DNA from: an uncultured Candidatus Saccharibacteria bacterium
Lineage (GTDB): Bacteria > Patescibacteriota > Minisyncoccia > Phycocordibacterales > G965230995
NCBI GenBank assembly: GCA_965230995.1
Contig: OZ246398.1
Coordinates: forward strand, 144,227-208,226
Length of the DNA: 64,000 nt
Direction of reading: 5' to 3'
Shown here: piece after piece, positions 30,577-61,902 of the stretch
How positions within the stretch are numbered: the first letter of the stretch is position 1
How the letters are laid out: each line of letters starts with the position of its first letter
The notes under the pieces: model-generated
Database searches by the model: none
What the model was told of the DNA's origin: nothing
Seen by the model: only the letters and a program-made list of their open reading frames with translations
Position numbers and translations under genes: made by a program

Positions 30577-30655
30577 CGTCGCTCGTCACACGGCCCCATC
30601 ACCGCGCTATTCTCCGGAGTAGTGCGGCTTTTCTTTTTTATTTAGGATTAAAAAA

Positions 30656-37972: not shown

Positions 37973-38144
37973 ACGAACTGGCCCCGCGCTTCGCGCGGGC
38001 CTAAACGGAATCAAAAATAACATCCGTCAAGCTATGAATTTGACATATTTTGTGATATATTGGCTGTATTAATAGTTAATTTCGCCTCTGCATAGGAAGA
38101 TTTGAATTTTTTTCAAGTCTTAAATGCAGAGGGGATACAAAAAT

Positions 38145-43144: not shown

Positions 43145-44116
43145 TTAAAATGGATTTACAGCACCTCGAATTTCAAAATGTAGATGTGGGCCAGTAGAGT
43201 TTCCTGTGTTTCCAGAATATCCGATTATCTGTCCTTGCAAAACTTCTTCGCCAGCATTGACTGCTGTTTTATCCAAATGAGCGTAAAGAGTTTGAGAATT
43301 ATTTCCGTGTTTTATAACAACATATTTTGCATAACCTCCATTCCAACCTTCTTCTCGACTAACCGCAACAATTCCCGAAGCAGATGCATAGACAGGTGTT
43401 CCGATTGGGGCAGCAAGGTCAATTGCATTATATCCGTGTATGCCTTGTGTCTTTCGATATTTTGCCATTGGCGGTATGTAATATCCCAAAGATTCTTTAG
43501 ATGAACCTTTTATGTTTATGACTCTTGTTGAAGAATCCTTTGAAGGTTTTGCATCACCATCCGGAATTATTATTGTTTCACCAACAGAAAGTATGGCTTT
43601 GTTTGAAATATTATTATAATCCATTATTTCTTTAACATCTGCATGGTATGTTGTAGCAACAGAATCAACAGTGTCTCCTTTTTTTACTATATGTTTTACT
43701 CCTGAAATAGGGAGAATAACCAAAGTCTGACCTGGTCTTATTTTACTTCCAGAAATATCATTACCCCACAAAATAGTATTCACGCTAACTTTAAACATTT
43801 CTGCAATTCCTGAAATAGTGTCACCTTCGCGAACTACATAAACGCTAATTTGGTCTGTTTCAATGTTATGAGAAACAGAGGAAAGGGAGGATGGCCCTGA
43901 TTCAGACAGAAGAGCGCTTCCGTCTATTACTGTTATATCCCCACCGCCAATATCATTTCTAGGATTTAGAGACGCACTAAGCAAAGCCATATTCTGAGCA
44001 TTTTCATATACTATAGGCTTTGTCTGTTCTGATTTTCCCGAAATCAAATCAGCAACAAAAGAAAATATGCTCGCCTCGGCTTTAGCAGGCATTGATATTG
44101 AAAATATGGCAATCAA
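43145..44116 (-). CDS. M23 family metallopeptidase with two LysM domains
   Basis: LysM repeats (YVVREGDTISGIAEMF; HIVKKGDTVDSVAT) and M23 motifs HGYNAIDLAAP ... GPHLHFEIR. Confidence 0.8.
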   Translation of the reverse strand: MIAIFSISMPAKAEASIFSFVADLISGKSEQTKPIVYENAQNMALLSASLNPRNDIGGGDITVIDGSALLSESGPSSLSSVSHNIETDQISVYVVREGDTISGIAEMFKVSVNTILWGNDISGSKIRPGQTLVILPISGVKHIVKKGDTVDSVATTYHADVKEIMDYNNISNKAILSVGETIIIPDGDAKPSKDSSTRVINIKGSSKESLGYYIPPMAKYRKTQGIHGYNAIDLAAPIGTPVYASASGIVAVSREEGWNGGYAKYVVIKHGNNSQTLYAHLDKTAVNAGEEVLQGQIIGYSGNTGNSTGPHLHFEIRGAVNPF

Positions 44117-44893: not shown

Positions 44894-46867
44894 ATGCCAG
44901 AACCAATTTCATATTTAGAAACTCTAAACCAAGAACAAAAAGATGCAGTGCTCTATACTGATGGGCCGTTACTAATTCTCGCCGGTGCAGGAGCAGGAAA
45001 AACAAAAACAATTACTCATCGAATATTACATTTAATACACAAAGGTATCGCCCCACATAGAATCCTCGCTATAACTTTTACAAACAAAGCCGGCAATGAA
45101 ATGAAAGAGAGGGTAGAAAAATTGATCAGAGAAGATAAAACTTTGAATCTACCCGTCGAAATGAATGAACATCCTTTCGTGAGCACTTTTCACTCTCTCG
45201 GTGTACATATTTTAAGAGAACAAGCAGGAAGAATCGGACTTCCAAAACATTTTTCAATTTTTGATAGAGATGATTCAAAAAAAGCAGTGAAAGAAGCCAT
45301 CGCAAAAGCCGGCCTCGATCCAAAACAATTTGAACCAGGAAAAATATTATCTGCCATATCAAAACAAAAAGGGAATATGGTCACAGCAAAGAGCTTCGCG
45401 CGGAGCGCTAATCAAAGCTATTTTGCCGACATAATAGGAAAAGTTTGGATGGAATATGAAAAAATTCTTGAGAGAGAAAAGGCTCTTGATTTTGATGATT
45501 TGATTTTAAAGACGGCTCTTTTATTAAAAGAAAATGCCGAAGCAAGAGAATATTACCAAAATATTTGGACTCATATACATATCGACGAATATCAAGATAC
45601 AAACAAGGTTCAGTACGAAATAGCAAAACATCTCGCAGACAAAACAAAAAATATTTGTGTCGTCGGCGATATCGATCAAAACATTTACAGCTGGAGAGGT
45701 GCGGATATAAAAAATATTTTAAATTTTGAAAAAGATTATCCTCAAGCAAAAACAATTTTACTCGAAAGAAATTACAGATCAACCCAAACAATACTCACCG
45801 CTGCCAATAGAATTATAGAAAAAAATATTCATCGAAAAGAAAAAAATCTTTACACAGAAAATAATGAAGGAGAGAAAATTTCTCTCTTTGATGCGTACAA
45901 TGAAAATAGTGAAGCGAGATTTGTCGCAAACAAAGCAAAAGAACTTCTCGCAAATAACGTCCCGGGTGAAGAAATTGCAATTTTGTATAGGACAAACTTT
46001 CAATCGAGAGCACTCGAAGAAGCTTGTATCTCTATGCAAGTTCCATATCAGATGCTCGGAGTGAAATTCTTTGAGAGAAAAGAAGTAAAAGATGTTTTGT
46101 CTTATATAAGAGCGAGTCTCAATCCAGATTCTATTTCTGATATAAAAAGAATTATCAATAGCCCGAAGAGGGGAATTGGAAAAACAACTATTTTAAAAAT
46201 ATTTGAAGGAAAAAAAGAAGAGCTTCCTTCTGCTACAAAAAAGAAAGTTGATTCATTCTTTTTGCTACTTTCAAAAATACAAAAAGTTGCTACGACTTCA
46301 AAACCAAGCGATACAGTAAAATATGTAATCAAAGAGACAGGTATTGAAACAGAACTTTCAACAGGTAGCGAAGAAGATATGGAAAGACTTGGAAACGTAA
46401 AAGAGCTCGCAACAATTGCAAGCAACTATGATTTACTTTCTCCCGAAGAGGGAATAGAAAAGCTCTTGTCTGAAAGCGCTCTTGCGACCGATCAAGACAG
46501 TTTGGACACGGAAAAGACAAACAAAGGCATCAAAATGATGACAATCCACGCCTCGAAGGGTCTAGAATTTGATTATGTTTTTATAACCGGTCTTGAAGAC
46601 GGGCTTTTTCCTTCACATAAAGACAATATTCCAAAAGATAGCGAAGAGGGGGAGGAAGAACGAAGACTATTTTATGTTGCTCTCACAAGAGCGAGAAAAA
46701 AGATTTTTCTTTCTTATGCCCAAATGCGGACAATATATGGCTCAAAACAAATGAATATTCCGTCTGAATTCGTATATGATATAGATGATGATTTGGTAGA
46801 AAGAGAAGAAACAGACAGAGAAACACACTATTTGGATGATAAACCGCTATTTAGAATAGATTTTTAG
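44894..46867 (+). CDS. pcrA: ATP-dependent DNA helicase PcrA/UvrD
   Basis: 657 aa; Walker A AGAGAGKTKT and SF1 helicase motifs (TFHSLG, VVGDIDQNIYSWRGA). Confidence 0.9.
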   Translation: MPEPISYLETLNQEQKDAVLYTDGPLLILAGAGAGKTKTITHRILHLIHKGIAPHRILAITFTNKAGNEMKERVEKLIREDKTLNLPVEMNEHPFVSTFHSLGVHILREQAGRIGLPKHFSIFDRDDSKKAVKEAIAKAGLDPKQFEPGKILSAISKQKGNMVTAKSFARSANQSYFADIIGKVWMEYEKILEREKALDFDDLILKTALLLKENAEAREYYQNIWTHIHIDEYQDTNKVQYEIAKHLADKTKNICVVGDIDQNIYSWRGADIKNILNFEKDYPQAKTILLERNYRSTQTILTAANRIIEKNIHRKEKNLYTENNEGEKISLFDAYNENSEARFVANKAKELLANNVPGEEIAILYRTNFQSRALEEACISMQVPYQMLGVKFFERKEVKDVLSYIRASLNPDSISDIKRIINSPKRGIGKTTILKIFEGKKEELPSATKKKVDSFFLLLSKIQKVATTSKPSDTVKYVIKETGIETELSTGSEEDMERLGNVKELATIASNYDLLSPEEGIEKLLSESALATDQDSLDTEKTNKGIKMMTIHASKGLEFDYVFITGLEDGLFPSHKDNIPKDSEEGEEERRLFYVALTRARKKIFLSYAQMRTIYGSKQMNIPSEFVYDIDDDLVEREETDRETHYLDDKPLFRIDF

Positions 46868-46902
46868 GTGATTTTTTGGTTAAACTGCTGTACTATTATT
46901 AT

Positions 46903-47691
46903 ATGTTTCAAAAGAAATCACTCGGACAGAATTTTCTGAATAATCCTGTTATTTTGGACAAAATTGTAACAGCAGGAGAAACTCAAAAAGGCGATATTAT
47001 CTTGGAAATAGGCCCTGGAAAGGGAACTCTAACAGAAAAACTCTTGGAAAAGGGGGCAATTGTCTATGCTGTAGAAAAAGATGACCGTTTAATACCATTT
47101 CTAGAGGAAAAATTCAAAAAATATGCTGATAATAAACACTTTTTTCTAATAAGTGGGGATATCGCAGAAATGGATATTGATGATATTGGTATAAAAACAG
47201 ATTATAAAATAATCGCAAATATTCCGTATTACATTACAGGTCTAATAATCAGAAAATTCCTCGAAAGCCAAAAACAGCAAAAAACAATGGTTATTTTGGT
47301 TCAAAAAGAAGTAGCCGACAGAATTTGTGCCAAAGACGGCAAGGAAAGTCTTCTTTCTGTTTCAATAAAGGCTTATGGCGAACCTTTTTCTCTTGGAACA
47401 GTCAAAAAAGGCAATTTTTCACCAGCACCAAAGGTTGATTCGGCAATTCTTGCCATAAAAAACATATCGAGAGACTTCTTTACACGGGAAAATATCTCCG
47501 AAGAAGATTTTTTTAGTGTAATTAAGACTTGTTTTGCCGGAAAAAGAAAAATGCTCCGCGGAAAAATAAAAGACTTTTCGAAAGAAAAAAATGCGGAGGA
47601 AATTCTCCAAAAAATAAATATCAAAAGTGACGCTAGGGCAGAGGATCTGTCTCTTTTAGATTGGGCAAATCTCACAAAAAATTTGCTTTAA
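46903..47691 (+). CDS. rsmA: 16S rRNA (adenine1518/1519-N6)-dimethyltransferase
   Basis: SLGQNFL and LEIGPGKGTLT motifs; start taken at MFQKKSLGQNFL. Confidence 0.85.
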   Translation: MFQKKSLGQNFLNNPVILDKIVTAGETQKGDIILEIGPGKGTLTEKLLEKGAIVYAVEKDDRLIPFLEEKFKKYADNKHFFLISGDIAEMDIDDIGIKTDYKIIANIPYYITGLIIRKFLESQKQQKTMVILVQKEVADRICAKDGKESLLSVSIKAYGEPFSLGTVKKGNFSPAPKVDSAILAIKNISRDFFTRENISEEDFFSVIKTCFAGKRKMLRGKIKDFSKEKNAEEILQKINIKSDARAEDLSLLDWANLTKNLL

Positions 47692-47729
47692 TTTTGTAGG
47701 ACAGAGTTTGGGGTGATATAATTGTATTT

Positions 47730-48653
47730 GTGAAATATCTAAAATACACAATCTATATTTTGATAATCTGTGCAATAATTTTTGGCGGATGGTTTCTATA
47801 TGGAAGAAAGCAACAAGAAAATATTTACAAATCAAACTTTATTGCAATAGACACAAAAACTCTCACTACAGAAACAGACACTGATAGCGATGGACTCAAA
47901 GATTGGGAAGAGATTCTTTGGAAAACAAACCCATCTATTGCCGACACAGATGAAGACGGAACAGACGACGGGACAGAAATCAAAGACGGCAGGGACCCAA
48001 CAATAAAAGGCCCAGCTGATACATTAAAGAGAGCAGTTAGTTCTCAAACCAGTGATCTTGCAGAAAATCTTTTCGGTTTCTATCTAAACGAAAGAAAAAC
48101 AGCGGGGGATATTTTACCTGGAACAAGTGAAAAATTGGTAGCAGAAGCCCTCGCAAAAGCCTCAAAACCCAATGAATATAGCCTTATTTCAGAAAAGAAC
48201 ATTAAAACAAATTCTGATAACACAGTAGCAGGGTATAAAGAATACGGAAAAAATATAGCTACGATTATGTCCGAAGTCTCAGCCCAACCAAACGAAGTCC
48301 TAATATTAGCAAAGGCGCTAGAAATGAAAGATGAAAATGTTCTTGCCGAATTGGATCCTTCGATAAAAATGTACAGAAAAATACTTGGGGAAATAACAAA
48401 TACACCAGTACCGAGCAAACTCGCATCAAAACATTTAGATCTCATAAATACAACTATAAAAGTAGTCACTGATATCGAAGGGATAAGAGGTGTTTTCTCT
48501 GATTCTCTTTTGGCATTTTCATCAATCACTTCATATTCACAAAATATTATAAGTCTTGAAAGTTCTCTAAGGGTAATTGGATCTGCTCTAAAACAAAAAG
48601 GTGTCGAGTATTCCACAGATGAAATTGGTTATGGTCTTGTAAATGTTCTATAA
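47730..48653 (+). CDS. membrane-anchored protein with thrombospondin-type-3-like calcium-binding repeats (first gene of T4SS-like operon)
   Basis: N-terminal TM; DTDSDGLKDWEE and DTDEDGTDDGTE repeats. Confidence 0.5.
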   Translation: MKYLKYTIYILIICAIIFGGWFLYGRKQQENIYKSNFIAIDTKTLTTETDTDSDGLKDWEEILWKTNPSIADTDEDGTDDGTEIKDGRDPTIKGPADTLKRAVSSQTSDLAENLFGFYLNERKTAGDILPGTSEKLVAEALAKASKPNEYSLISEKNIKTNSDNTVAGYKEYGKNIATIMSEVSAQPNEVLILAKALEMKDENVLAELDPSIKMYRKILGEITNTPVPSKLASKHLDLINTTIKVVTDIEGIRGVFSDSLLAFSSITSYSQNIISLESSLRVIGSALKQKGVEYSTDEIGYGLVNVL

Positions 48654-48663
48654 TAGATAAAGG

Positions 48664-50013
48664 ATGTCAGGACGAAATCCTTACGCGTTTGGTTTTGCAA
48701 AAGCCAGCATTATTGTTGGAGTTTTCTGTTTGGTTTTTTCTCCACTTTTTCCTATGCCCGAGAAAAAAGCCGAGGCACAAATTGCATCTGCAGTTGGGAG
48801 CATAGCTGCTTGTTTCGGAATCAGTGCTCTTTTTAATATCGCAAGTGGTGCCGCTACTGTTGCTAACGCTGTTCTAGCTGTTCCCGTCAGCGATGCAGTA
48901 ACACAAATGAACACAAACCTCACACAGGGCAACACTGCAAGCTCTCTCAACAAGGAATGTTCTCTAGACACAATCGGTTTTGCTATTGCAAAAGTCATAT
49001 TGGAAGATATGGCGAATAATTTTATAAACTACATAAACAACGGCTTCGAAGGTGATCCTTTCTTTATCTCTTCACCTGGCGAATATTTCAAAGGGTTGGC
49101 TGACGAAATAGTAGGGGAATTTCTTTCACAGGCAGGTCTAGATTTTCTCTGTAAACCATTCCAACTGCAATTACGAAATGCTCTCAAAATACAATATGGT
49201 GGCGGAGGTAAAGCAAAATACAGAGAAAAAGGTTGTACTCTTACAGATATTGTCGGCAACGTCGATGGCTTTATCGAAGGTAATTTTGAAGATGGAAACT
49301 GGCTCGGCTTTATCGAAATAACACAAAATCCAAACAACAACCCCGTCGGAGCATTCCTTTCAATCCAAGGTGAAATCGACGATAGAATCGCTGCTAAATT
49401 GGGAGTTGAAAACAAATTGCTCGATTGGAATATGGGATTCTTTTCACAAAAGGTAAAGGGACCAGACGGCGTCGAGAGAATTGTCACACCAGGAAGCCAG
49501 ATAGAGAATCAGCTCGCACTGCATCTCGGAAGTGGGGTAAGACAACTTGAACTCGCAGACGAATTCAACGAAATATTGAGCGCCCTTTTCACTCAGCTTC
49601 TAAAACAGGCTTTCTCAAAAGAAGGTATAGCAGGTTATGTTAAACCAGCAGACGACACAGCGACATACGAAGAAGATATGGCTGAACTAAAAATCGAAGG
49701 TGAAGGATTGATCGAAGAAGCAAGATTCCTCGTTACAGATAATCCGGGTAGACTTTCTACAGTAGATATCGCTAACCTCGATTACTATTCAAGAGCAATA
49801 AACGACGCAATTGCAAAAAACAATAGAATCGACCTAAGCAATGCAAATGTGTTTATGGCACAAAAGATCAAAGAAATAAAAGACAGAATCGCAGAGGAAG
49901 ACGGAACACCTCCTCCACCAGAAGACAATCCTGATGATCCGCCCGAAGAAGAAGATGACCCAGGAGACATTGGTGACGCCCCAGAACAAAACCCATTTGG
50001 TGACGATGAATAA
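48664..50013 (+). CDS. membrane-anchored protein with acidic Pro-rich C-terminus (T4SS-like operon)
   Basis: 449 aa; N-terminal hydrophobic helices; tail EDGTPPPPEDNPDDPPEEEDDPGD. Confidence 0.5.
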   Translation: MSGRNPYAFGFAKASIIVGVFCLVFSPLFPMPEKKAEAQIASAVGSIAACFGISALFNIASGAATVANAVLAVPVSDAVTQMNTNLTQGNTASSLNKECSLDTIGFAIAKVILEDMANNFINYINNGFEGDPFFISSPGEYFKGLADEIVGEFLSQAGLDFLCKPFQLQLRNALKIQYGGGGKAKYREKGCTLTDIVGNVDGFIEGNFEDGNWLGFIEITQNPNNNPVGAFLSIQGEIDDRIAAKLGVENKLLDWNMGFFSQKVKGPDGVERIVTPGSQIENQLALHLGSGVRQLELADEFNEILSALFTQLLKQAFSKEGIAGYVKPADDTATYEEDMAELKIEGEGLIEEARFLVTDNPGRLSTVDIANLDYYSRAINDAIAKNNRIDLSNANVFMAQKIKEIKDRIAEEDGTPPPPEDNPDDPPEEEDDPGDIGDAPEQNPFGDDE

Positions 50014-50016
50014 AAA

Positions 50017-52329
50017 ATGAAAAAAATATTATCCGCATTTGTAATATCAATAGTAACAGCAGTTTCATTGCTTTTGCCTTTTAGTGCAAATATTTCCGGA
50101 CACAATCTAAGCATCGGAATCGGATATCAGAGCGCTTCTGCACAAGATACAACCAATCAACCTGAACCGAGTTTTGCAGAATCAGTTGCATCATACATTA
50201 CAAAAGGATTGTCAGTATGGCTCACACAACAATTGTATGTTTTATATGCAATCTGCGCACTGCTTATGTTTATTGCTGGTTTTATATTAAACCTCGTAAT
50301 TGAACTTACAATTGTAGACCCAGAATTATTATTACCGAGAACTGTTATATCGAGCCTGTGGGTAATATTCCGCGATATTGCAAATGCTACTTTCCTTTTT
50401 GTGCTCCTTTACGGTGCCATTCAAACAATGCTTGGCCTTGCTGGTGCGGGTGTTAAAAAATTAATACTAAATGTCGTTATCGTTGCTATTGTTGTGAACT
50501 TTTCTCTCTTTGCTACCCGAGTTGCCATAGATTTTTCAAATATTTTGACTTTGGCTGTTTACAATCAAATAATGGGAAAAACAGAAAAAGCTCCATCTAA
50601 AGGTTTAAATCCTCTTACTGGTGACTTCAGTTTGAAGAACGCAGAATCAAAAATGGCAGAGATGGCACAGGAGCTCGGTGGTGGACTCTCAGGAAAATTT
50701 ATAAGTGCAACTGGTCTCCTAAAATCATTAACACTATCTGTGGATCTCAAAGCAGATATTGCGAACTTCGTTACAATACCAGTAAAAATCGTGGTTTACA
50801 GTATCTTCCTCCTTATCTCTGCAGCAATGCTGTTTTCAGTGTCGGTAGTATTTTTGATTAGATTCGTGGTAGTTGTATTTTTGATGGTCTTATCACCGAT
50901 AGCGTTTGTCGGTTTTATACTGCCTTCGCTCAGAAGTAAACTGACCAGCAAATGGACGGATTATCTAATGAACGCAATGTTCTTTCCGCCTTTGTTTTTC
51001 CTTTTAACGTATTTGTCGCTAAAGATAATTGATGGTCTGAACAAAAGCTGGACTGTAGGTTCAAGTAATAATTTTGCAATAGAAATTGTTTCTATCGGTT
51101 TTTCACTATTTATATCAGGATTCTTTTTGATGACACCCCTACTAGCGGCTACTATATTTAGCGCAAAGGGAACCGAATTTATGAGTAGCTTTACAAAAGG
51201 AGTGAGTGGAAAGATAAAAGGTTTTGCAGGACAAGGAGCAAATATTGCTTCAAGGAATACTCTTGGAAGAGGTGGAAGATGGATGGAATCTAAATTTAAA
51301 GATTCAAAGTTTATGAATCTAGCCCCAATGAGAGACCTACGTGCTGCCACAACACAAAGATTAGAGGGTATAAAATTTGGCGGTGGAAGATCTCTTGAAG
51401 AAGCTGAAAAAGAAAGCCGAACGACTGCAAAATTACAATCAGAAATTAACGACAGAAGCAAATTTGCAAGCAATCAAGCAAATTATGCTAATGCGAAGGC
51501 AGAATACGATAGAATCGACAGAATGCCAGATAAGACAGACGCAGAAAAAGCAGCAAAAGAAAGCGCATTTGAGACGTTCAGAGGTACGGACAACGCAAAA
51601 ATTCTACGAGAGACAAGAGAATATGTTGAAGGTTGGGGAGCAAATGATATCAAGGATAACAAAGATGATATTAAAAGAAATAGCGCCGACGAAGCCATTC
51701 ACATTAAAGACTCCGCTCTCGAGGCTTACGCCAAAACAGACGACCCAGAAGCAAAAAGTTTTGTTGACGAAATTTACAAAAAGAAACTACAGAATCTACG
51801 GACCGTCCTTGGTACTCCAGGGGTTACTTCGGACAACATAAAGAAAGCAGTCTCTGGTTTGTCAAACGAAGCATTAAAACGTTTGGAATTCAATGAATTG
51901 CGTACGATAATGACAAAAGCAGGAGGGGCAATCAAAGGGGAAAAACTAAAAGATATAACGAAGTCACTCCCTCCTGAAGACAAAAAATTACTCCAGGCAG
52001 ATCGTGAAAAACATTTTAAAGAAGAGGCGGTAAAGGCCAACGGAAAGGCGGTAGCTTCTGGAATTGATGTTAGTGAGATTGAAAATTTTAGTGATAACTT
52101 CTTGGAAAGTAACGAGATTGTTCCGTACCTTTCACCCGCAATGCTTCAGAGGCTCGTTAATGAAAAAAACACAACTAACTTTCTAGAAATTGGTAAAATA
52201 CTAGTAGGCATTGACAGCGGGACAATACCACCAACTCCGATGGATACAGCTGGGGCAGCAAAAGCTGGGGCAGCAAAACTTCTTAAGTTTTTGAGAGGTA
52301 AACCGGTAGGTGGAACATTTGGATTATAA
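50017..52329 (+). CDS. VirB6/TrbL-like polytopic membrane protein with long charged C-terminal extension
   Basis: 770 aa; signal peptide; about 7 TM helices across residues 60-390, then a 380-aa K/E-rich helical tail. Confidence 0.55.
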   Translation: MKKILSAFVISIVTAVSLLLPFSANISGHNLSIGIGYQSASAQDTTNQPEPSFAESVASYITKGLSVWLTQQLYVLYAICALLMFIAGFILNLVIELTIVDPELLLPRTVISSLWVIFRDIANATFLFVLLYGAIQTMLGLAGAGVKKLILNVVIVAIVVNFSLFATRVAIDFSNILTLAVYNQIMGKTEKAPSKGLNPLTGDFSLKNAESKMAEMAQELGGGLSGKFISATGLLKSLTLSVDLKADIANFVTIPVKIVVYSIFLLISAAMLFSVSVVFLIRFVVVVFLMVLSPIAFVGFILPSLRSKLTSKWTDYLMNAMFFPPLFFLLTYLSLKIIDGLNKSWTVGSSNNFAIEIVSIGFSLFISGFFLMTPLLAATIFSAKGTEFMSSFTKGVSGKIKGFAGQGANIASRNTLGRGGRWMESKFKDSKFMNLAPMRDLRAATTQRLEGIKFGGGRSLEEAEKESRTTAKLQSEINDRSKFASNQANYANAKAEYDRIDRMPDKTDAEKAAKESAFETFRGTDNAKILRETREYVEGWGANDIKDNKDDIKRNSADEAIHIKDSALEAYAKTDDPEAKSFVDEIYKKKLQNLRTVLGTPGVTSDNIKKAVSGLSNEALKRLEFNELRTIMTKAGGAIKGEKLKDITKSLPPEDKKLLQADREKHFKEEAVKANGKAVASGIDVSEIENFSDNFLESNEIVPYLSPAMLQRLVNEKNTTNFLEIGKILVGIDSGTIPPTPMDTAGAAKAGAAKLLKFLRGKPVGGTFGL

Positions 52330-52331
52330 AA

Positions 52332-53165
52332 ATGAAAAACATTCCAAAAGATTTATTGAAAAAAATTACGTCCGATGAAACAAATTCATTTATAGATGAA
52401 ATGATAGTTTCAAATGGCTTTACCGAAGAGCAAGGATCTGCTCTCGGTAATGAAACTGGTAGATACATGTTAGGAAAAACAAAATCTGATCGTTTTGTTC
52501 CTAATTTGATGTATAGAATGGATATAAACAGAACTACGGCAGAAGCAATAAAAGAAAAAATAGATCAGGAGCTTGTCGCGCCAGTACGGGCTTCATTTGA
52601 ATTTGCTCAAGCAAATGATTTATTTTCTGAAAACACCAATGAAGTCAAAGTGTCTGTTTCAAATCAAAATACAGAAGAAGACAATGGGGGAGTCGATATA
52701 ATGAAAGAATCTCCAGAAAAACAAGAGAGCACTGAAACTAATCCTAAAAAGGAACAGATAGTAAGCGATATAGAAAACCCTCTACACAAACAAGAATCTG
52801 CCACAGCAAAAGAAAATGATTCATATTCTAACTACACACCACTTAATGTAATTAAGGACGATGTCTTGAAGGGAATAGAAGACCCTGTAAAAGAGACCCC
52901 GCCAGCACCAGAAGAAAGCGAGGCAACAGAACTTGATTTGGAACTGGATGCCATATTAAAAAAACCTAGAGTATCAAGCCAAATCGAGCCAGATTTACCA
53001 ACAGAAAACCCTCGGGATATTCCAAAATTTACTGAAAGCCACACACAAACACCGCCCGTAACAGCATCAAAAAATCCTGAACAAAAAAGACCAGCAATTG
53101 ATATTAGACCATCGTCTGGTTCAGCTTATAAAAGTGGGGACCCGTACAGAGAACCAATAGAATAG
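52332..53165 (+). CDS. hypothetical acidic soluble protein (T4SS-like operon)
   Basis: 277 aa ORF, 3-nt spacing. Confidence 0.5.
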   Translation: MKNIPKDLLKKITSDETNSFIDEMIVSNGFTEEQGSALGNETGRYMLGKTKSDRFVPNLMYRMDINRTTAEAIKEKIDQELVAPVRASFEFAQANDLFSENTNEVKVSVSNQNTEEDNGGVDIMKESPEKQESTETNPKKEQIVSDIENPLHKQESATAKENDSYSNYTPLNVIKDDVLKGIEDPVKETPPAPEESEATELDLELDAILKKPRVSSQIEPDLPTENPRDIPKFTESHTQTPPVTASKNPEQKRPAIDIRPSSGSAYKSGDPYREPIE

Positions 53166-53202
53166 ATTTCGTGTTTTTTGATTTAGGTTCTATACTATAT
53201 GT

Positions 53203-53631
53203 ATGCAATTTCAAGTTCCTCAATATATAGAAGAAGATGACAAAATATTTTGGATGCTTTCTTTCAAACAAGCAATTTATATTGCCGGCGGTTTGGGTAT
53301 ATCTTTTGTAATCTACTACTTTTTAGGTTCACTATTATTTTCAATTCCTTTTATTGTACCGGTTCTTGTATTATCAGGATTACTAGCTTTCTACAGACAT
53401 AACAATAGACCCTTTATTTTCCTACTGGAAGCAATGTTCTACTATATGCTTAGCGACAAATTGTTCATCTGGAAAAAGATTCCAAAATATAATAATGAAA
53501 AAAGTACAGAAAAAGTAGAAAAAACAACAGACGAATTATCTATACCACGAGTAACCCAAGGTAACATCCATAATCTTTCTTGGAAACTGGATATGAATAT
53601 CGATGAAAAAAATGTGGATAAGCGAATATGA
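53203..53631 (+). CDS. small two-TM protein (PrgI/VirB3-like candidate)
   Basis: 142 aa; two adjacent TM helices; immediately upstream of the VirB4 ATPase, as VirB3-type proteins usually are. Confidence 0.45.
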   Translation: MQFQVPQYIEEDDKIFWMLSFKQAIYIAGGLGISFVIYYFLGSLLFSIPFIVPVLVLSGLLAFYRHNNRPFIFLLEAMFYYMLSDKLFIWKKIPKYNNEKSTEKVEKTTDELSIPRVTQGNIHNLSWKLDMNIDEKNVDKRI

Positions 53632-53643
53632 TATAATTAACTC

Positions 53644-54273
53644 ATGGCAATATCTTCAAAAACAGCACAAGAATTTGTACCGATAAAAGAAATCCGAAAC
53701 GAAACTGTCATAATGAAAGACGGATCTCTTCGTGGCGTTGTTTTGTGTTCTTCAATAAACTTTGCCCTCAAATCCGAGGATGAAAGAATGGCTGTTTTGG
53801 CGCAGTTTCAAAACTTTCTGAACTCACTCGATTTTGAAGTCCAGATATCAGTACAATCGAGAAAACTTGATATAAAATCATATCTTTCATTACTTGAAAC
53901 AAGAGAGGGGCAACAGATTAATGACCTGATGAGGATACAATTGAAAGAATATGTTGCTTTCATAAAGGATCTCACCGAAAAGATAAACATAATGACAAAG
54001 AATTTCTTTATTGTCGTTACATACAAACCATCAATCACAAGCGGGGAATCGGGGGTAGGAATACTAAAATTCGGTAAAAAACAAAGCGCCGAAGAAAAAA
54101 ATCAAACATTCGGAGAATCAAAATCACAGCTCGACGAAAGAATATCATTCGTGATGCAGGGTATTACCAGAACTGGAGTACGTGCAGAAAGACTTGGAAC
54201 CGAAGAGTTAATAGAATTGTATTATAGAACATTTAACCCAGGGGATACACAAGACCCTGCCAGAGCAATGTAA
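53644..54273 (+). pseudogene. VirB4/TraE-type conjugation ATPase, N-terminal portion (split from the C-terminal portion by a frame change)
   Basis: 209 aa resembling Gram-positive VirB4 N-domains; the next ORF starts 2 nt later in a different frame; 209 + 601 aa equals typical VirB4 length. Confidence 0.5.
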
Positions 54274-54274
54274 T

Positions 54275-56080
54275 ATGTCTTTATTAGATTTTTTCAAAAA
54301 AAATAAAACGACAACAGAACCCGTTTTGCCACAGGATATTTATGATGCGTCTGTTTTGGAATTGCAGGATGTCATTGCCCCAAGCGCACTCAAAATAAAT
54401 TCAAAAGAGACAATGATTTCTGGGATGATGGTTAGATCATATTTTGTCGTTTCATATCCTAGATTTGTTGGGGAAGACTGGCTTTCTCCTATTGTAAACC
54501 TAGACAAAGTATTTGATATTTCAATTTTTGTACATCCAATAGATACTTCTGTTATTCTAAAAAAATTCCAGAAAAAAGTAGCTGAAGTAGAAAGCCAAAT
54601 AAATGAACGCCAAGAAAAAGGACTCGTTAGAGATCCAAAACTAGAAATTGCATATCAAGACCTCGAAAATCTTAGAGATCAATTACAGCAAGCATCAGAA
54701 AAAATGTTTGATGTTGGTTTGTACATTTCTTTGTACGGAAAAGACGAAGCAGAAATAGATAAAGTAGAATTGGAAATAAAATCAATTTTGGAATCAAAAC
54801 TTATCTATGTTAAACCTGCTCTATTCCAACAAAAAGAGGGTTTTCTTTCTATGATTCCAACTGCTGACGATGCCTTGATGGTGCATACAAAAATGAATTC
54901 CTCTCCACTCTCGAGCACCTTTCCTTTTGTATCGTTTGACCTCACGTCTGATAGGGGAATATTGTATGGACTAAACAGACATAATTCAGGTCTTATACTT
55001 TTTGATAGATACTCGCTTGAAAACTACAATTCTATTACTTTTGCAAAATCTGGTTCAGGAAAATCTTATGCAACAAAACTAGAAATCCTTCGAACTTTGA
55101 TGTTTGATACCGAGGTTATAGTAGTTGACCCAGAAAAAGAATATCAGTACCTCGCCGAAGCAGTGGGGGGCAGATTCTTTAATATTTCTCTTAACTCTGA
55201 ACACCACATAAATCCATTTGAATTACCAACTCCAGGAGAAGACGAATCGGCAGAAAGCGTTCTTCGTTCAAACATCATAAACCTTGTTGGTTTGTTTAGA
55301 ATTATGCTTGGTGGTCTTTCTCCAGAAGAAGACGCAATAATCGACCAAGCCATAATGCAAACTTATGCATTAAAAGACATTACACCTGATTCAGATTTCA
55401 GAAATATCGAACCTCCACTTATGTCAGACTTTGAATTGGTGCTCTCTGGTATGCAAGGCGGAGAATCTCTCGCACAGAGACTCACAAAATATACAAAGGG
55501 TACTTGGGCTGGGTTCATAAACCAACCATCAAATATTGATATGAACAAAAAGCTTGTTGTATTTTCACTTCGAGATATGGAGGACGAGCTAAAGCCTATT
55601 GCAATGTATATTATTATGCATTACATCTGGAACACAGTCAGAAAGGATATCAAAAAGAGACTTCTTGTTATTGATGAAGCGTGGTGGATGATGAAATCCG
55701 AAGACACCGCATCATTTTTGATGGGACTTGTTAAAAGAGGGCGAAAATATTATCTTGGTGTATCTACAATCACACAAGACGTCGAAGACTTTTTGCGATC
55801 ACCATATGGAAAACCTATTATCACAAACTCTTCAATACAAGTCTTACTCAAACAATCTCCGTCAGCTGCCGACGTTCTACAAAATGTTTTTAATCTAACA
55901 GATGAAGAAAAATACACATTGCTTGAATCTGGAGTAGGAGAGGGGATTTTCTTTGCTGGAATAAAACACGCAGCTATAAAAGTCTATGCTTCTTATACAG
56001 AAGACCAGATTATTACATCTGACCCATCACAGTTACTTGCTATAAAAAAAGCAAAAGAAGAATTAAGAAATAGCCTTTAA
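54275..56080 (+). CDS. VirB4/TraE-type type IV secretion ATPase (C-terminal ATPase portion)
   Basis: Walker A FAKSGSGKSY; Walker B RLLVIDEAWWMM; motif GRKYYLGVSTITQDVEDF. Confidence 0.8.
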   Translation: MSLLDFFKKNKTTTEPVLPQDIYDASVLELQDVIAPSALKINSKETMISGMMVRSYFVVSYPRFVGEDWLSPIVNLDKVFDISIFVHPIDTSVILKKFQKKVAEVESQINERQEKGLVRDPKLEIAYQDLENLRDQLQQASEKMFDVGLYISLYGKDEAEIDKVELEIKSILESKLIYVKPALFQQKEGFLSMIPTADDALMVHTKMNSSPLSSTFPFVSFDLTSDRGILYGLNRHNSGLILFDRYSLENYNSITFAKSGSGKSYATKLEILRTLMFDTEVIVVDPEKEYQYLAEAVGGRFFNISLNSEHHINPFELPTPGEDESAESVLRSNIINLVGLFRIMLGGLSPEEDAIIDQAIMQTYALKDITPDSDFRNIEPPLMSDFELVLSGMQGGESLAQRLTKYTKGTWAGFINQPSNIDMNKKLVVFSLRDMEDELKPIAMYIIMHYIWNTVRKDIKKRLLVIDEAWWMMKSEDTASFLMGLVKRGRKYYLGVSTITQDVEDFLRSPYGKPIITNSSIQVLLKQSPSAADVLQNVFNLTDEEKYTLLESGVGEGIFFAGIKHAAIKVYASYTEDQIITSDPSQLLAIKKAKEELRNSL

Positions 56081-56082
56081 TT

Positions 56083-56694
56083 ATGGCTGAAAATACAGAC
56101 ATCGAGGTAATACCAAAAAGGTCTGAGCAAGAACCAGGCATAGAAAGAGTTCCTAAAAGACCGCCGAGAATAAAGACTTGGGTTTTTTGTGCAATGCTCA
56201 TTGTCGCAATCATACTTGATTTAGTTAGCCTCATTCCAGCAGCAAATGACATTACGCTCGTAATTGCCGGTATTCTTTTTGGATTATGGTGGTGGAAACT
56301 CGGACTTGGTTTCCTTAATTTAAAGAAAATAATCACATACTCTCTTTCTGTAATAGTCGAAGCTGTCCCTATTTTGGCCGTTTTGCCCGCTGTTACACTG
56401 GCTGTTGTCGTAACCTTTGTTATTTCTAGGGGAGAAGATAAATTGGGCATTAGCATTATGCCTGGAAAATTTGGCATAGACGCAGGAAAAAATCCAAAAA
56501 GAATTGGCTTAAAAGAGAGATTCAACTCACTTAAAAAAGAAACTAAATGGACCGAGGACGAGAAAAAAATCTTTAAAAGAAAAGATGATACAGCAAGAAA
56601 AGATAAGAACCCACTAGCCTTTGTACCAGGGGAGTATTCAAAAGAAACTGGTTCGCTCGAGGACACAGACAAAGAATACGATATTGACGAATAG
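56083..56694 (+). CDS. polytopic membrane protein (T4SS-like operon)
   Basis: 203 aa, 3-4 TM helices then K/E-rich tail; preferred over the antisense ORF 56040..56705 because it continues the plus-strand operon with 3-nt spacing. Confidence 0.5.
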   Translation: MAENTDIEVIPKRSEQEPGIERVPKRPPRIKTWVFCAMLIVAIILDLVSLIPAANDITLVIAGILFGLWWWKLGLGFLNLKKIITYSLSVIVEAVPILAVLPAVTLAVVVTFVISRGEDKLGISIMPGKFGIDAGKNPKRIGLKERFNSLKKETKWTEDEKKIFKRKDDTARKDKNPLAFVPGEYSKETGSLEDTDKEYDIDE

Positions 56695-56747
56695 TTTTTA
56701 TTCACACCCCGCTTTAATAATTAGTACTAAAAGGCTATAATGTAGTT

Positions 56748-57734
56748 ATGCAAAGAATCTTTTTCTTTTTATCCTTGTTCTTGTTATTTTTTGTTTTTGC
56801 ATCTAATACAAAAGCTCAGAGCAATGCTGTCACTCCTTTTGATATTAAAAACGAAACTAACATTTATGTTTCTCCACAAAACCCTCAGAAAGGCCAAGAT
56901 TTTGAAGTATCCATTGAAAGCTATTCGCTCAACTTGGACGCCTCGACAATATCTTTTTATGCAAATGATGTTTTAATCCAAAAAGAACTTGGAAATAAAA
57001 AGGCTATAATACCAAACAAAAGCACAGTAACTGTTGTGAGGATTTTGATTGAAACATCGCAAGGAAATTTTATAGAAAAAGAAAAAATAGTTTATTCAAA
57101 TTCACTTTCATTAGTCTGGAATGCACAGACAACTGTACCGCCTTTTTACAAAGGCAAAGCTCTTCTTTCAGACGGATCAGAAGTCATAATATCAGCAATT
57201 ACAGAAATCACAGACGAAAACAACAAACAAATTCCACAGGAGCTTTTGATTTTTACATGGAAAGTCAACGGAAAAACAAAATTGGATTTATCGGGAATAG
57301 GAAAGAGTGAAATCGTGATAAGTGATGTTGTGGTAGATGATAAATACAAAATATTTGTAACTGCTGAATCTCGAGATCAAAAATATACTGCCACAAATTA
57401 TCTTGAAATTTCTTTTAGCAACCCAAAGGTTTTGCTTTACGAAACAGACCCTCTCTTTGGACCCTCAAGCTATGCTCTGTCTAATTCTAAAACTACAAAA
57501 AACGAATTGGGAGTAGTTGCTGTCCCTTTCTTTTTCAAAAAAGGAGCGCAAGATAATGTTGTATCTTTTACATGGAGAGTCAACGGCGAAACAGCAAAGA
57601 CAAAGTCGAACCGAATATCGCTACGAAACGAAAAGGGAGGGGAGGGCTATATTGAAATATCAATCCTAGCCGAGAGTCTTCTCGATAAATTTCAAAGATT
57701 CAGTAAAAAAATAACGCTCGAAGCAATAAAATGA
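56748..57734 (+). CDS. secreted protein (T4SS-like operon)
   Basis: signal peptide MQRIFFFLSLFLLFFVFASNTKA; beta-rich. Confidence 0.5.
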   Translation: MQRIFFFLSLFLLFFVFASNTKAQSNAVTPFDIKNETNIYVSPQNPQKGQDFEVSIESYSLNLDASTISFYANDVLIQKELGNKKAIIPNKSTVTVVRILIETSQGNFIEKEKIVYSNSLSLVWNAQTTVPPFYKGKALLSDGSEVIISAITEITDENNKQIPQELLIFTWKVNGKTKLDLSGIGKSEIVISDVVVDDKYKIFVTAESRDQKYTATNYLEISFSNPKVLLYETDPLFGPSSYALSNSKTTKNELGVVAVPFFFKKGAQDNVVSFTWRVNGETAKTKSNRISLRNEKGGEGYIEISILAESLLDKFQRFSKKITLEAIK

Positions 57735-58984
57735 TAAGAAAGAATTTTAAAATAATCTTGTTGTCTATCATAATAGTTTTATGTTTTGCTTTTGTAAAAA
57801 TTACTTTTGCAGCAGACGATAGCGGACTACTCACCTATACACCAATGGAAGTGATAGACGGCCTTACACCGGAAAAAATGCCAGTTAATCTGTCAGATTA
57901 CCTCAATCGGCTTTATGTATTTCTAATTGCATTTTCTTCTGTTATCGCCGTTGTAATGATAACAATTGGTGGTTTTACTTATATTCTATCTGCAAGTTCC
58001 GGTGGAAAAGAAGACGGCAAGGGGATGATAAAAAATGCAATTTTTGGTCTTTTGTTAATGTTTCTTAGCTATCTAATCGTAAATACAGTTAACCCAAGCG
58101 CTCTGGATTTTAATATTTTCAAAAATGCAACTCCTATAAAACCGGTAAGTTTGGAAATTAATACTTCAGGAGAAGGTCAAACCGCTCTAGAAGGGCTCGA
58201 CCCGACCAAAAAAGGACAGTGGGCACTTAGAGTTGTCTCACCAGAAAATTCAGAAATTAGATATTATGATACACAAGTTAAATGTTTATCTGAAAAAGAA
58301 TCGCTTTCTGAAGCAACAACTGCAAAATACAAGATGCCGGCAACAAGTCAATGCACAGCAAAGACTATGAATGTAGATAAAGTATATTATTTTACTTATG
58401 ACTATAAGGATTGGCCGGATAGAAATGTCGTCGAGACGACCAGCTGGTCTGCAACTGGAAAAACAAATTCTATTGCTACAACAGAGATTTCAGAGACAAC
58501 AATGGAAGCCTGTAAACAAAAAAAAGAAGAGGTTATCGCAAAAGCATTAGACAGAAAACCTTATCGTCCAACAACTGCCTGTACATCTCTCCATAATTCT
58601 GAAAATACAAATCAATTTAATTTTAGTTTTATATATCCTTACGGAGAAACGGAAGCAAGAGAATTTGCTACAAAATCATACTCAACAAAAGAATGTGTAC
58701 AAAAATATAAGTTTATCTCAACATACTATGAACCTTATAAGAACATATCGGAATGTAAGGAAAAAAAACCTACCAATTCGACTCAGAAAGCAACCTACTA
58801 TTGCCAAGAGGGGATAGAAATGTATTTGGACGGAAATAATGTGGGGGAACAATCTAAAGGAACAAATAAAACTTCTGGTAATGATTGTTTCAGGACAAAA
58901 TCAGAATGTGAACAAAACTTCAACGAAAAAAAGGTTCAATTAATGCCAAGATATAATTTATCATCATGCATACTGGTAAAATAA
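57731..58984 (+). CDS. VirB2/TrbC-like pilin domain fused to a 270-aa Cys-rich extracellular domain
   Basis: signal peptide then two hydrophobic helices LYVFLIAFSSVIAVVMITIGGFTYILSA and GMIKNAIFGLLLMFLSYLIVNTVNP (T4SS pilin topology), then a C-terminal region with at least 12 Cys. Confidence 0.5.
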   Translation: MIRKNFKIILLSIIIVLCFAFVKITFAADDSGLLTYTPMEVIDGLTPEKMPVNLSDYLNRLYVFLIAFSSVIAVVMITIGGFTYILSASSGGKEDGKGMIKNAIFGLLLMFLSYLIVNTVNPSALDFNIFKNATPIKPVSLEINTSGEGQTALEGLDPTKKGQWALRVVSPENSEIRYYDTQVKCLSEKESLSEATTAKYKMPATSQCTAKTMNVDKVYYFTYDYKDWPDRNVVETTSWSATGKTNSIATTEISETTMEACKQKKEEVIAKALDRKPYRPTTACTSLHNSENTNQFNFSFIYPYGETEAREFATKSYSTKECVQKYKFISTYYEPYKNISECKEKKPTNSTQKATYYCQEGIEMYLDGNNVGEQSKGTNKTSGNDCFRTKSECEQNFNEKKVQLMPRYNLSSCILVK

Positions 58985-60165
58985 AATTAATACTACTTAC
59001 TCTCGGAGCAATATTGGTAATTGCAATTATTGCTTTGTTCACGTATGGTTATTTTGAATCAAAAAATAATGGTAAAACGCTAACACAAACAGTTGTAGAT
59101 ATTTTTCCAAGATCTTCTAAAACAGAAAATACTCCAAATACAGAAGAACCAGCGGAACAACCCCCAGTAGAAATTCCAACAAACACCACCGATATTTACA
59201 CTAAAAAAATTAGAAAAATAGCTAGCGGTCCTATTTCTGGTTCATTTTTTACTGGTACATCAACAGTAAGATACGTAGATAAAGGAACAGGAAATGTGTA
59301 TGAATATTCCTATTACACTAACACAACAAAAAAATTAACATCAACTGTCATCCCGGGAATAAACGATACATTTTGGGTAAACAACAATACTTTTTTTGGT
59401 AGATATGCAGATACAGACTCTGAAATAATTCGTACATTTTTAGGAACAATATCAAATCCCGGAGAGTCTGGCGTTCTTTCAATTGAATTCTTTGAACAAA
59501 ATATAAAAGCAATGACTGTTTCTCCAAAAGGGGATAGAGTCGCTTATCTAGTGGAAAGCGGTCAATACGGAGTTGTTGCAATATATGACATAAAGAAAAA
59601 AACGATTGCTAGAATATCTACAATACCAGGAAGCGAATATTCATTACACTGGAACGAAAATGGATTATACGCTCAAAGCAATGCATCATTTAATCTACCA
59701 GGGTATCTCTTAAAACTATCCCTGACTGGAGAACAGCCAAAAATTGTTATACCTTCTGTTCTAGGTTTACTTTCAAAACCAATCAAAGCAGGTTTCATCG
59801 TATCGTCTTTTAGTACCACACAAGGATATTCTTATATAATGACAAATTCACAAAAGGTAAGTCTGGAAAATCTTGTTATCCCTGAAAAATGCGTAGAAGC
59901 AAAAGAAAATATCTATTGTGCAGTATCTTCTTTAAACAATGAATCTGGTATGCCAGACTCATGGTACAGCGGGGAAACTAGATTGATAGACCGATTAGAA
60001 AAAATAAATATCAAAAATCCACTTGAAAAAGAAGTCGTTTATACATCAGCACTTGGAGAAGACGGCTCGTTTGATATGATCAATCTTCAGATTTCTCAAG
60101 ATTACGAAACACTTATATTTACAGAAAAGGGAACAGGCGATCTCTGGAGTATAGACATAAGATAA
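58966..60165 (+). CDS. membrane-anchored secreted protein (last gene of T4SS-like operon)
   Basis: 399 aa; N-terminal TM; overlaps previous gene; terminator follows. Confidence 0.5.
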   Translation: MHTGKIKLILLTLGAILVIAIIALFTYGYFESKNNGKTLTQTVVDIFPRSSKTENTPNTEEPAEQPPVEIPTNTTDIYTKKIRKIASGPISGSFFTGTSTVRYVDKGTGNVYEYSYYTNTTKKLTSTVIPGINDTFWVNNNTFFGRYADTDSEIIRTFLGTISNPGESGVLSIEFFEQNIKAMTVSPKGDRVAYLVESGQYGVVAIYDIKKKTIARISTIPGSEYSLHWNENGLYAQSNASFNLPGYLLKLSLTGEQPKIVIPSVLGLLSKPIKAGFIVSSFSTTQGYSYIMTNSQKVSLENLVIPEKCVEAKENIYCAVSSLNNESGMPDSWYSGETRLIDRLEKINIKNPLEKEVVYTSALGEDGSFDMINLQISQDYETLIFTEKGTGDLWSIDIR

Positions 60166-60170
60166 TAAAA

Positions 60171-60198
60171 CAAAAAAACCGCTTTGGCGGTTTTTTTG
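60171..60198. terminator. bidirectional terminator
   Basis: aaaaaaaccgc tttg gcggtttttttg. Confidence 0.6.
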
Positions 60199-60199
60199 T

Positions 60200-60652
60200 T
60201 TATATCTGAGAATATTTTATCACCACTCTTCTTTCTTTACCCTCACCAATAGACGATGTTTCGATTCTAATATCGTCACCGAACATATTGTGTATGAGTA
60301 GTCTCTCGTAAGAATTCATCGGCCTTAGCTCTATTGTTTTTTTGGTTTTTACAACTTCTTCGACTGTCTTTCTGACTTCTGCTATAAGCTGATTCATCTC
60401 GTCTTGTTTGTAACCATTTATATCTATATTGAATTTTGCTTCGCTCTTTGTCTTTTGTTTGATTATGAGGCTGAGCAAATGGTGATATGCGTCTATATGT
60501 TCTCCTCTTTTTCCAATAGCCCTTCCAGAATCGTTCGTTCTCACGTTATAAACGATAATATCGCCCTGTTTTACAATTTCTACGTCTATTACATGGACGT
60601 CTAATTTTGCAAAAAAATCTTTTATTAAGGCTATAGTTTCTTCTTGTGTCAT
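60200..60652 (-). CDS. jag: Jag/KhpB RNA-binding protein (KH + R3H domains)
   Basis: 150 aa; GRAIGKRGEHIDAYHHL KH block; R3H-like C-terminus; downstream of yidC as usual. Confidence 0.8.
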   Translation of the reverse strand: MTQEETIALIKDFFAKLDVHVIDVEIVKQGDIIVYNVRTNDSGRAIGKRGEHIDAYHHLLSLIIKQKTKSEAKFNIDINGYKQDEMNQLIAEVRKTVEEVVKTKKTIELRPMNSYERLLIHNMFGDDIRIETSSIGEGKERRVVIKYSQI

Positions 60653-61764: not shown

Positions 61765-61902
61765 TTAGACTGTTGTTATTCTCTTTCTTCCTTTTTGTCT
61801 CCTTCGCTTTAGAGTGTTTTGTCCAGTTTTTGTTTTGCTTCTTACGAGAAAACCGTGTGTCTTTGCTCGTTTTTTCTTTTTTGGTTGATATGTAATCGAC
61901 AT
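61765..61902 (-). CDS. rpmH: 50S ribosomal protein L34
   Basis: minus-strand translation [45 protein letters not shown]; not in the supplied ORF track (under 60 aa); hairpin 61735-61768 downstream. Confidence 0.8.

Follow-up and report, generated by a model that had tools for sequence, protein, structure and literature searches.

A chromosomal type IV secretion locus of the Patescibacteria clade, with conserved accessory genes, beside dnaA in a Paceibacteria genome

We analyzed a 64-kb stretch of contig OZ246398.1 (herein the window), the remainder of the source genome lying outside our view, and characterized a compact gene cluster for a type IV secretion system (T4SS) located near dnaA. The listing of open reading frames (ORFs) contains eleven on the + strand over 47730-60165, which encode, in order, proteins of 307, 449, 770, 277, 142, 209, 601, 203, 328, 417, and 399 amino acids (aa). 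All eleven are intact, the gaps between them are 10, 3, 2, 37, 12, 1, 2, and 53 nt, and the final two junctions are overlaps of 4 and 19 nt. A preliminary description made from the sequence alone had reported ten tightly packed genes on one strand that end in a single terminator. The packing on one strand and the terminator stand, whereas the count does not: two ORFs, one TrsD-like (209 aa) and one for the ATPase (601 aa), together make up VirB4. The terminator is a palindrome at 60168-60201 with a 15-bp stem, a GC core, and A/T runs on both sides; it is a bidirectional (unstranded) intrinsic terminator that the cluster has in common with the convergent gene jag. Antisense ORFs within the cluster (e.g., the - strand ORF 56040-56705), which overlap conserved genes of the + strand, were regarded as spurious.

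The motor of the system is encoded by two adjacent ORFs. The larger (54275-56080, + strand, 601 aa) matches profiles for the C-terminal two thirds of a VirB4 ATPase of the Gram-positive (MPF_FATA/CD1110) type. Its match to NCBIfam NF045971 (CD1110-type, 3.4e-107) spans profile positions 181-728 of 752 and scores 359.6 bits against a cut-off of 325, and it also matches Pfam P-loop_TraG (PF19044, 1e-27). The best PDB match is the C-terminal domain of the Thermoanaerobacter VirB4 (4AG5, 6e-39), with TrwK at 6e-7, and a match to CedB is partial (3.6e-10, ∼80 residues). A P-loop scan placed the Walker A motif AKSGSGKS at residue 257, and a Walker B-like stretch, LLVIDEAW, was read by eye in the translation. 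These results agree with the VirB4/TraE ATPase carrying Walker A and B that had been described previously; overlooked at the time was the split. The 209-aa ORF (53644-54273, + strand) stops 1 nt ahead of virB4 and is, by its profile matches, a TrsD-like, free-standing homologue of the VirB4 N-terminal domain (NCBIfam VirB4_plasma, 1.8e-12; TIGR00929, positions 4-176; TrsD NF041427, 1.1e-6), such that both ORFs jointly tile one VirB4. We scanned a genome collection with VirB4, which returned more than 539 relatives, and used the best 80 for our comparisons. Since a separate TrsD ORF of 205-272 aa precedes virB4 in 77 of these 80 related loci, with 54% identity, the split is not a sequencing artefact.

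Upstream of trsD, a 142-aa protein (53203-53631, + strand) with two transmembrane (TM) segments matches PF12666 at 8.2e-9 and 36.3 bits (gathering cut-off 27), and it was found in 76/80 loci, which bears out the PrgI/VirB3-like 2-TM protein of the preliminary description. The 770-aa polytopic membrane protein (50017-52329, + strand) had been called VirB6/TrbL-like. It matched nothing in our current Pfam or NCBIfam scans; a weak precomputed match to TrbL_3 (PF19590) is recorded for this exact protein, and 6 of its 46 homologues match TrbL/VirB6. These matches uphold the assignment and place a VirB6 homologue near virB4. The VirB6 family profile found chance matches only among PDB sequences, and a fold comparison was needed. 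In its structural model, a hydrophilic helical C-terminal domain of ∼300 aa is confidently predicted, giving what is termed an extended VirB6.

The pilin candidate (57731-58984, + strand, 417 aa) begins with a VirB2-like T4SS pilin domain (residues ∼1-125), to which a Cys-rich extension of 290 aa is fused. Residues 57-119 match PF18895 (T4SS_pilin) at 4.3e-6 and 27.1 bits, just above the cut-off of 26.6, and this family is matched by 39/40 members of the pilin family, while TrbC/VirB2 is matched by 4/40. Thus, the VirB2/TrbC-like pilin proposed earlier is recovered, and the profile searches suggested at that time for the 142-aa and 417-aa proteins both return T4SS-family matches above cut-off (PF12666 and PF18895). 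In tblastn comparisons of the related loci, conservation of the pilin is confined to its N-terminal quarter; the extension varies by species, and family members range from 136 to 555 aa. The Cys pairs in the window protein (185/208, 261/284, 322/342, and 386 or 393/413) are regularly spaced, a pattern that is suggestive. We also considered internal repeats in the extension and rejected them, as the best self-alignment score of 36 is not significant against a shuffle maximum of 41. Two relatives carry a weak Peptidase_M15_4 match and one a weak CHAP match. On a tentative reading that we do not favour, such a lone pilin and its variable extension could build a fibre that is decorated and specific to the host.

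Parts typical of conjugation were sought as well. Inspection of the ORFs and the P-loop scan revealed no VirD4-like coupling protein, VirB11, or relaxase in the 64-kb window, as the preliminary description had stated. The Walker A scan identified five real P-loop proteins, namely PilB, ComM, UvrD, VirB4, and DnaA, and the window holds no second T4SS ATPase. Within 10 kb of virB4 in the 80 relatives, where relaxases were not searched, we found no coupling-protein-like P-loop ORF. Homologues of ComB7-10 (VirB7-VirB10) gave no Pfam or NCBIfam match for ten ORFs searched against both libraries, nor a Pfam match for the 399-aa ORF, which was searched against Pfam only.

The best 80 of the more than 539 relatives are all Parcubacteria/Paceibacterota metagenome-assembled genomes at the species level, with VirB4 proteins 73-78% identical to that of the window. 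Zambryski-, Taylor-, and Campbellbacteria are among the names, and some genomes carry a generic "Saccharibacteria" label; the source genome is Paceibacteria/Parcubacteria. The identity of VirB4 across 80 species is consistent with strong purifying selection. When the window proteins were compared by tblastn, essentially every sufficiently long locus of the 80 showed an identical order, which runs uvrD, rsmA, the 307-aa and 449-aa genes, virB6, prgI, trsD, virB4, the 328-aa gene, the pilin gene, and the 399-aa gene, followed by yidC, rnpA, and dnaA, each on the strand expected. For two genes that seemed to be missing, those of the 277-aa and 203-aa proteins, counterparts were recovered by position. 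The shared order, the housekeeping flanks, and the positional counterparts therefore indicate that the cluster, with its conserved accessory set, is a chromosomal module passed on vertically and not a mobile element. The comparison with 80 species also defines which "hypothetical" neighbours belong to this module.

This conservation bears directly on whether the cluster is a conjugative element (an integrative and conjugative element or an integrated plasmid) or its decaying remnant, with the relaxase, coupling protein, and integrase outside the examined region. Such an origin might be read from the similarity of VirB4, PrgI, and TrsD, which are closest to Gram-positive conjugation proteins, from an Xer-like tyrosine recombinase at 36089-36985, and from the distant VirD4 homologues of most Patescibacteria genomes (PMC12102498). 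However, that Xer-like enzyme is the only recombinase in the window and lies 11 kb upstream, and the position and order of the genes are fixed in the 80 species between the same flanks (uvrD, rsmA, yidC, rnpA, and dnaA), alongside the high VirB4 identity. The cluster has a GC content of 0.34-0.40, like the remaining window, without a compositional break; its ORFs are undamaged, neither a relaxase nor a coupling ATPase occurs in the 64 kb, and no coupling-protein-like ATPase occurs in the flanks of the relatives. Relaxases are also rare in the phylum, with 109 in 3,035 genomes (PMC12102498). We consider a conjugative element highly improbable and close to refuted, in keeping with the earlier view that this is not a conventional one.

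The chromosomal setting was examined next to the cluster itself. The gene rsmA/ksgA lies directly upstream, while jag (R3H/KH), yidC, rnpA, and rpmH (61765-61902), all on the - strand, and dnaA (62126-63472) lie directly downstream, with DnaA-box matches on both flanks of dnaA. This is the origin-proximal context reported for Paceibacteria, and it is found likewise in the relatives. The earlier claim that the cluster sits beside the replication origin is supported by the rpmH-rnpA-yidC-jag block, dnaA, and the flanking DnaA boxes, and is reasonable. GC skew was discarded as evidence for the origin, since skew in the window tracks the coding strand and is hence uninformative. Separately, three DnaA-box matches, two of them perfect (TTATCCACA), fall within 60 nt at 29641-29701, in the intergenic region between a YraN-like ORF and a tRNA-Gly gene and ∼32 kb from dnaA; they may titrate DnaA, have a regulatory role, or occur by chance.

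The features at the locus can be compared with a survey of 3,035 Patescibacteria genomes by Quinonero-Coronel et al. (2025), who described a monophyletic VirB4 clade nested in MPF_FATA (PMC12102498). In that survey, the most frequent virB4 neighbour is TrsD, accompanied by PrgI/VirB3, divergent VirB6, and VirB2-like pilins (PF18895), and the T4SSs of Paceibacteria and Microgenomatia lie beside dnaA, dnaN, rnpA, ksgA, and rpmH (PMC12102498). The window holds the same combination: an MPF_FATA-type VirB4, a separate TrsD, PrgI/VirB3, VirB6, a VirB2-like pilin, an origin context, and no relaxase at the locus. It is near certain that the locus is a member of the Patescibacteria T4SS. We further regard it as highly probable that it is the Paceibacteria version of this chromosomal Patescibacteria-clade system, derived from monoderm (MPF_FATA) conjugation machinery and repurposed for episymbiosis. 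The translocon set consists of a VirB6-fold protein, PrgI/VirB3, and a VirB4 split into TrsD and the catalytic part, plus one VirB2-like pilin. To this are added seven lineage-conserved accessory proteins, mostly anchored or secreted, which include a TSP3 Ca-binding protein, one with Ig-like repeats, a probable β-propeller, and a helical protein with variable adhesin-like tails. The preliminary description had envisaged a chromosomal T4SS, possibly for host interaction or DNA uptake, of the sort hypothesized for episymbiotic bacteria of the candidate phyla radiation; this interpretation is supported, all four parts that it named hold, and the type has already been published (PMC12102498, PMC10633639). 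The locus thus rediscovers a system published in 2023-2025 and is no new kind of system.

Within the clade, the locus shares with the described systems (PMC12102498; Ca. Southlakia SEML1_0006-0019, PMC10633639) VirB4 with a separate TrsD, PrgI/VirB3, a divergent VirB6, and a PF18895 pilin, as well as the lack of a relaxase and of an adjacent type IV coupling protein (T4CP), and the position by dnaA/rnpA/rpmH/ksgA. It differs in that its only pilin gene encodes a long C-terminal extension rich in Cys, whereas tandem arrays of 2-11 short pilins have been described for Saccharimonadia and Microgenomatia, and, unlike the described loci, it has no peptidase or lysozyme genes directly 3′ of virB4. 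To the extent of our searches, PMC12102498 and PMC10633639 do not describe the seven conserved accessory genes, among them that of the 277-aa protein discussed below. With the Gram-positive MPF_FATA systems (pCF10 Prg/Pcf, pGO1 Trs, and CTn2 CD1110-type) the locus shares a VirB4 above the CD1110 equivalog cut-off, a PrgI-family VirB3, TrsD as in the pGO1 subclass, a polytopic VirB6 analogue, and the lack of an outer-membrane core (VirB7/9/10). In contrast to these systems, it has no relaxase, T4CP (PcfC/VirD4), or PrgB-type adhesin, no PrgK/TrsG-type hydrolase or PrgL/VirB8-like protein was recognized, it has the VirB2-like pilin that they lack, and it is chromosomal and vertically inherited, not mobile. 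Relative to the Gram-negative MPF_T systems (A. tumefaciens VirB and R388 Trw), VirB5, VirB7-VirB11, and VirD4 are missing, VirB4 is split, VirB6 has a large hydrophilic C-terminal domain, and the pilin is fused to a 290-aa domain.

Lastly, the locus resembles Helicobacter pylori ComB and archaeal Ced in pairing a VirB4-type ATPase with neither relaxase nor coupling protein, in non-conjugative use. A dedicated DNA-uptake (competence-type) T4SS of that kind, which would feed ComEC/ComM for recombination or nucleotide salvage, would accord with those two absences, with ComM encoded 4.6 kb upstream, with the partial CedB match, and with the import of DNA or other macromolecules proposed in PMC12102498. 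However, ComB7-10 equivalents, the ComB-type VirB7-10 parts, are absent from the library scans, the CedB similarity is short, and ComM is near the locus in only 2/80 relatives. Genetic work also speaks to this point: transposon sequencing by Wang et al. (2023) showed that Ca. Southlakia epibionticum requires the T4SS and its pilins for epibiotic growth (PMC10633639), while comEC is dispensable in this species, as reviewed in 2025 together with a possible pilus conduit (PMC12857230). Since deletion of comEC ends competence and not growth, and the T4SS is essential, ComEC-coupled uptake is not the essential function in Ca. Southlakia; in the one patescibacterium tested, the essential role is ComEC-independent. 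We therefore consider dedicated DNA uptake unlikely and retain the reading of a Patescibacteria-clade T4SS repurposed for episymbiosis.

Among the accessory proteins, the one encoded between virB6 and prgI (52332-53165, + strand, 277 aa) is acidic (pI 4.6), Pro-rich, and devoid of TM segments. Its N-terminal ∼85 aa form a conserved domain; the acidic, Pro-rich linker that follows is disordered and could not be aligned, and the protein ends in DPYREPIE, with the motif at 53139-53165. Positional analysis located an acidic Pro-rich ORF between virB6 and prgI in 57/59 loci, and in 54/56 homologues identified by position the C-terminus is DPYREP[ILV]x. The motif is specific: translating the 80 loci in all six frames yields DPY[RK]E 69 times, with 66 of these occurrences ≤5 residues from a + strand stop, and permuted versions of the pentapeptide DPYRE appear ≤3 times. 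An index-free hidden Markov model search of 1.84 billion representatives returned 7,714 relatives at E ≤ 1e-3 and 4,226 at E ≤ 1e-10, and the motif closes 113/121 new top representatives. In Paceibacteria loci, the DPYREP-tail gene always lies between virB6 and prgI. A Pfam search with the family gave chance matches only and no Pfam family, and a literature search on "DPYRE" gave unrelated text matches only; the family is without description in Pfam, in the source annotation, or in papers found by search. A folded head, a disordered linker, and an invariant terminal peptide form an architecture typical of tethered docking motifs, and a role of the 277-aa protein as cargo, adaptor, or regulator is speculation. 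We propose tentatively, as the less favoured side of an open choice, that the machine has, in the conserved accessory set, a part that is specific to Paceibacteria and previously undescribed, that DPYREP[ILV]x is a docking or secretion signal, and that the 277-aa protein is a dedicated cargo or an adaptor standing in for the coupling protein.

The TM and signal features of the other cluster ORFs agree with the preliminary description. The first ORF (47730-48653, + strand, 307 aa; 297 aa from a TTG start at 47760 according to the gene caller of a public assembly) encodes an N-terminal membrane anchor, a TSP3-type Ca-binding motif (DxDxDGLxDWEE), and a helical C-domain. Its window protein gives weak TSP3/MtsD/CglD matches, while 17/36 family members match TSP3_bac (best 2.8e-10), so the TSP3-repeat calcium-binding protein named earlier holds at the level of the family; tblastn found it at the same position in 37/80 related loci. 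The second ORF (48664-50013, + strand, 449 aa), found in 54/80 loci, encodes a signal peptide or anchor, a helical domain, a 3-helix bundle, and an acidic Pro-rich tail. Alignments show that its helical domain (∼residues 100-320) and Cys163/Cys191 are conserved. Across the family, this helical core is kept while the C-terminal modules are swapped, being Bact_surface_Ig-like, F5/8 type C, InlB B-repeat, or, as in the window, the acidic Pro-rich tail, which suggests a host-facing, fast-evolving, exposed surface protein. We entertained this protein, encoded just upstream of virB6, as a VirB5-like tip adhesin, which was not supported: DUF4141 matches in its relatives span the signal/anchor region only (residues 24-58 in relative L061), the family profile found nothing in PDB, and the family consensus found nothing in Pfam. 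Its AlphaFold2 model is poor (pLDDT 63.5), and Foldseek with the confident C-terminal part returned generic 3-helix bundles only.

Downstream of virB4 lies a small polytopic membrane protein (56083-56694, + strand, 203 aa, 3-4 TM). A sequence homologue occurs in only 10/80 loci, and an ORF of 110-300 aa with 2-4 TM segments occupies this position, between virB4 and the homologue of the 328-aa gene, in ∼50/68 loci. The secreted 328-aa protein (56748-57734, + strand), present in 76/80 loci, has a signal peptide and three tandem Ig-like/β-sandwich repeats with periodic Trp residues (W70/W171/W276); 8 of 40 family members match BiPBP_C and others PKD_3 or Ig_3, and the family profile matches T4 Hoc in PDB (0.002). 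The last ORF (58966-60165, + strand, 399 aa) encodes a membrane-anchored protein with an N-terminal TM segment, found in 66/80 loci. Its family profile matches TolB in PDB (0.01), and members show weak PD40/DPPIV_N matches; it is probably, though tentatively, a TolB/PD40-like β-propeller.

Taken alone, a pilin and several exposed, fast-evolving proteins with adhesin-like domains, which dominate the cluster, would suit an organelle for adhesion only, in which the VirB4 machine builds a surface fibre that holds the host and translocates no substrate; the missing coupling protein, in the window and in the flanks of the 80 relatives, points the same way. However, the window already contains a complete type IV pilus set (pilins, PilC, and PilB, 7484-13694), and type IV pili are the system implicated in Saccharibacteria adhesion (PMC10633639). 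Moreover, conservation extends to two proteins for which a pure fibre has no obvious need, the extended VirB6 and the cytoplasmic protein with the DPYREP tail. An adhesion-only organelle is, in our assessment, improbable.

Under the episymbiotic T4SS reading, which we prefer, hexamers of TrsD/VirB4 would dock on VirB3/VirB6, and the docked motor would energize the extraction and polymerization of pilin into a surface fibre or tube with the variable Cys-rich extension on its exterior. The exposed accessory proteins would span the wall and contact the host cell, and the assembly would pass macromolecules between epibiont and host, without relaxase-dependent plasmid conjugation. Direction and cargo are not set by the sequence and might be effector export or the import of host nucleic acids or other molecules. 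We propose this mechanism because of the homology to studied T4SSs and the Southlakia genetics. In a cultivated Minisyncoccota strain, host RNA uptake and tubular structures that "may be T4SS pili" have been reported (preprint 10.64898/2026.06.21.733656). Several points weigh against our interpretation. Within the cluster we recognized no VirB8-, VirB1-, or VirB5-like part, fibre formation by a pilin with a 290-aa extension is putative, and for the present organism the case is built from sequence comparison. Our view covers 64 kb, and a distant VirD4 homologue elsewhere in the genome is possible; in most Patescibacteria genomes, VirD4/T4CP homologues lie far from virB4 (PMC12102498). In addition, the promoter scan listed candidate internal promoters inside the cluster, which bears on the idea of a single transcript.

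One of these internal candidates lies at 56714-56741, found by the consensus scan ahead of the 328-aa ORF. At the upstream end, the co-directional run begins before the cluster, with uvrD/pcrA (44894-46867) and rsmA/ksgA (46876-47691), and the end of rsmA is 38 nt from the start of the first cluster ORF; the transcription unit may thus be longer than the cluster and run from the uvrD/rsmA side. Reading this gap by eye, we found a candidate promoter at 47694-47722 (+ strand) with TTGTAG, a 17-nt spacer, and TATAAT preceded by TG, the extended -10 candidate being TGATATAAT at 47714-47722. The consensus scan did not list it, as its -35 matches at 3/6 positions only, and it is a plausible promoter by inference only.

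Other genes and features in the window were also recorded. A wall hydrolase with a LysM-LysM-Peptidase_M23 architecture is encoded at 43145-44116 (- strand), 3.6 kb upstream of the cluster, and occurs near the locus in 7/80 relatives. In Paceibacteria, virB4 is associated with VirB1-like hydrolases that carry M23/LysM domains (PMC12102498), and this hydrolase may serve the T4SS. PNPase (38124-40259) and ComM (41558-43096) are encoded a few kb upstream. A 2026 preprint ties PNPase and VirB4 to host-RNA feeding in Patescibacteria; the linkage of PNPase and ComM to the cluster may be coincidental, given the two relatives with ComM near the locus. The type IV pilus cluster in 7484-16760 contains three to four pseudopilin-like ORFs, a 590-aa pilin-like protein, PilC (10704-11915), and PilB (11943-13694), followed by two tandem paralogues (13767-14501 and 14521-15306) and a 398-aa secreted protein. 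The paralogues have identical signal peptides and their N-terminal half in common, and their C-terminal halves differ. Beside three tRNA genes, the ∼500 nt at 30140-30655 hold as their sole ORF an implausible GTG ORF (30171-30602, - strand), and Rfam returned no match at E ≤ 1 for the ORF-poor interval 30100-30700.

The window provides a clean, complete Paceibacteria example of a T4SS locus. Its DPYREP-tail family offers a concrete handle for interaction or secretion assays, which could show how such a system operates when no coupling protein is present. No T4SS before that of the Patescibacteria had been reported as essential for survival of its own carrier bacterium, and the Patescibacteria system is a leading candidate for the exchange of material between these ultra-small, biosynthetically poor bacteria and their hosts.

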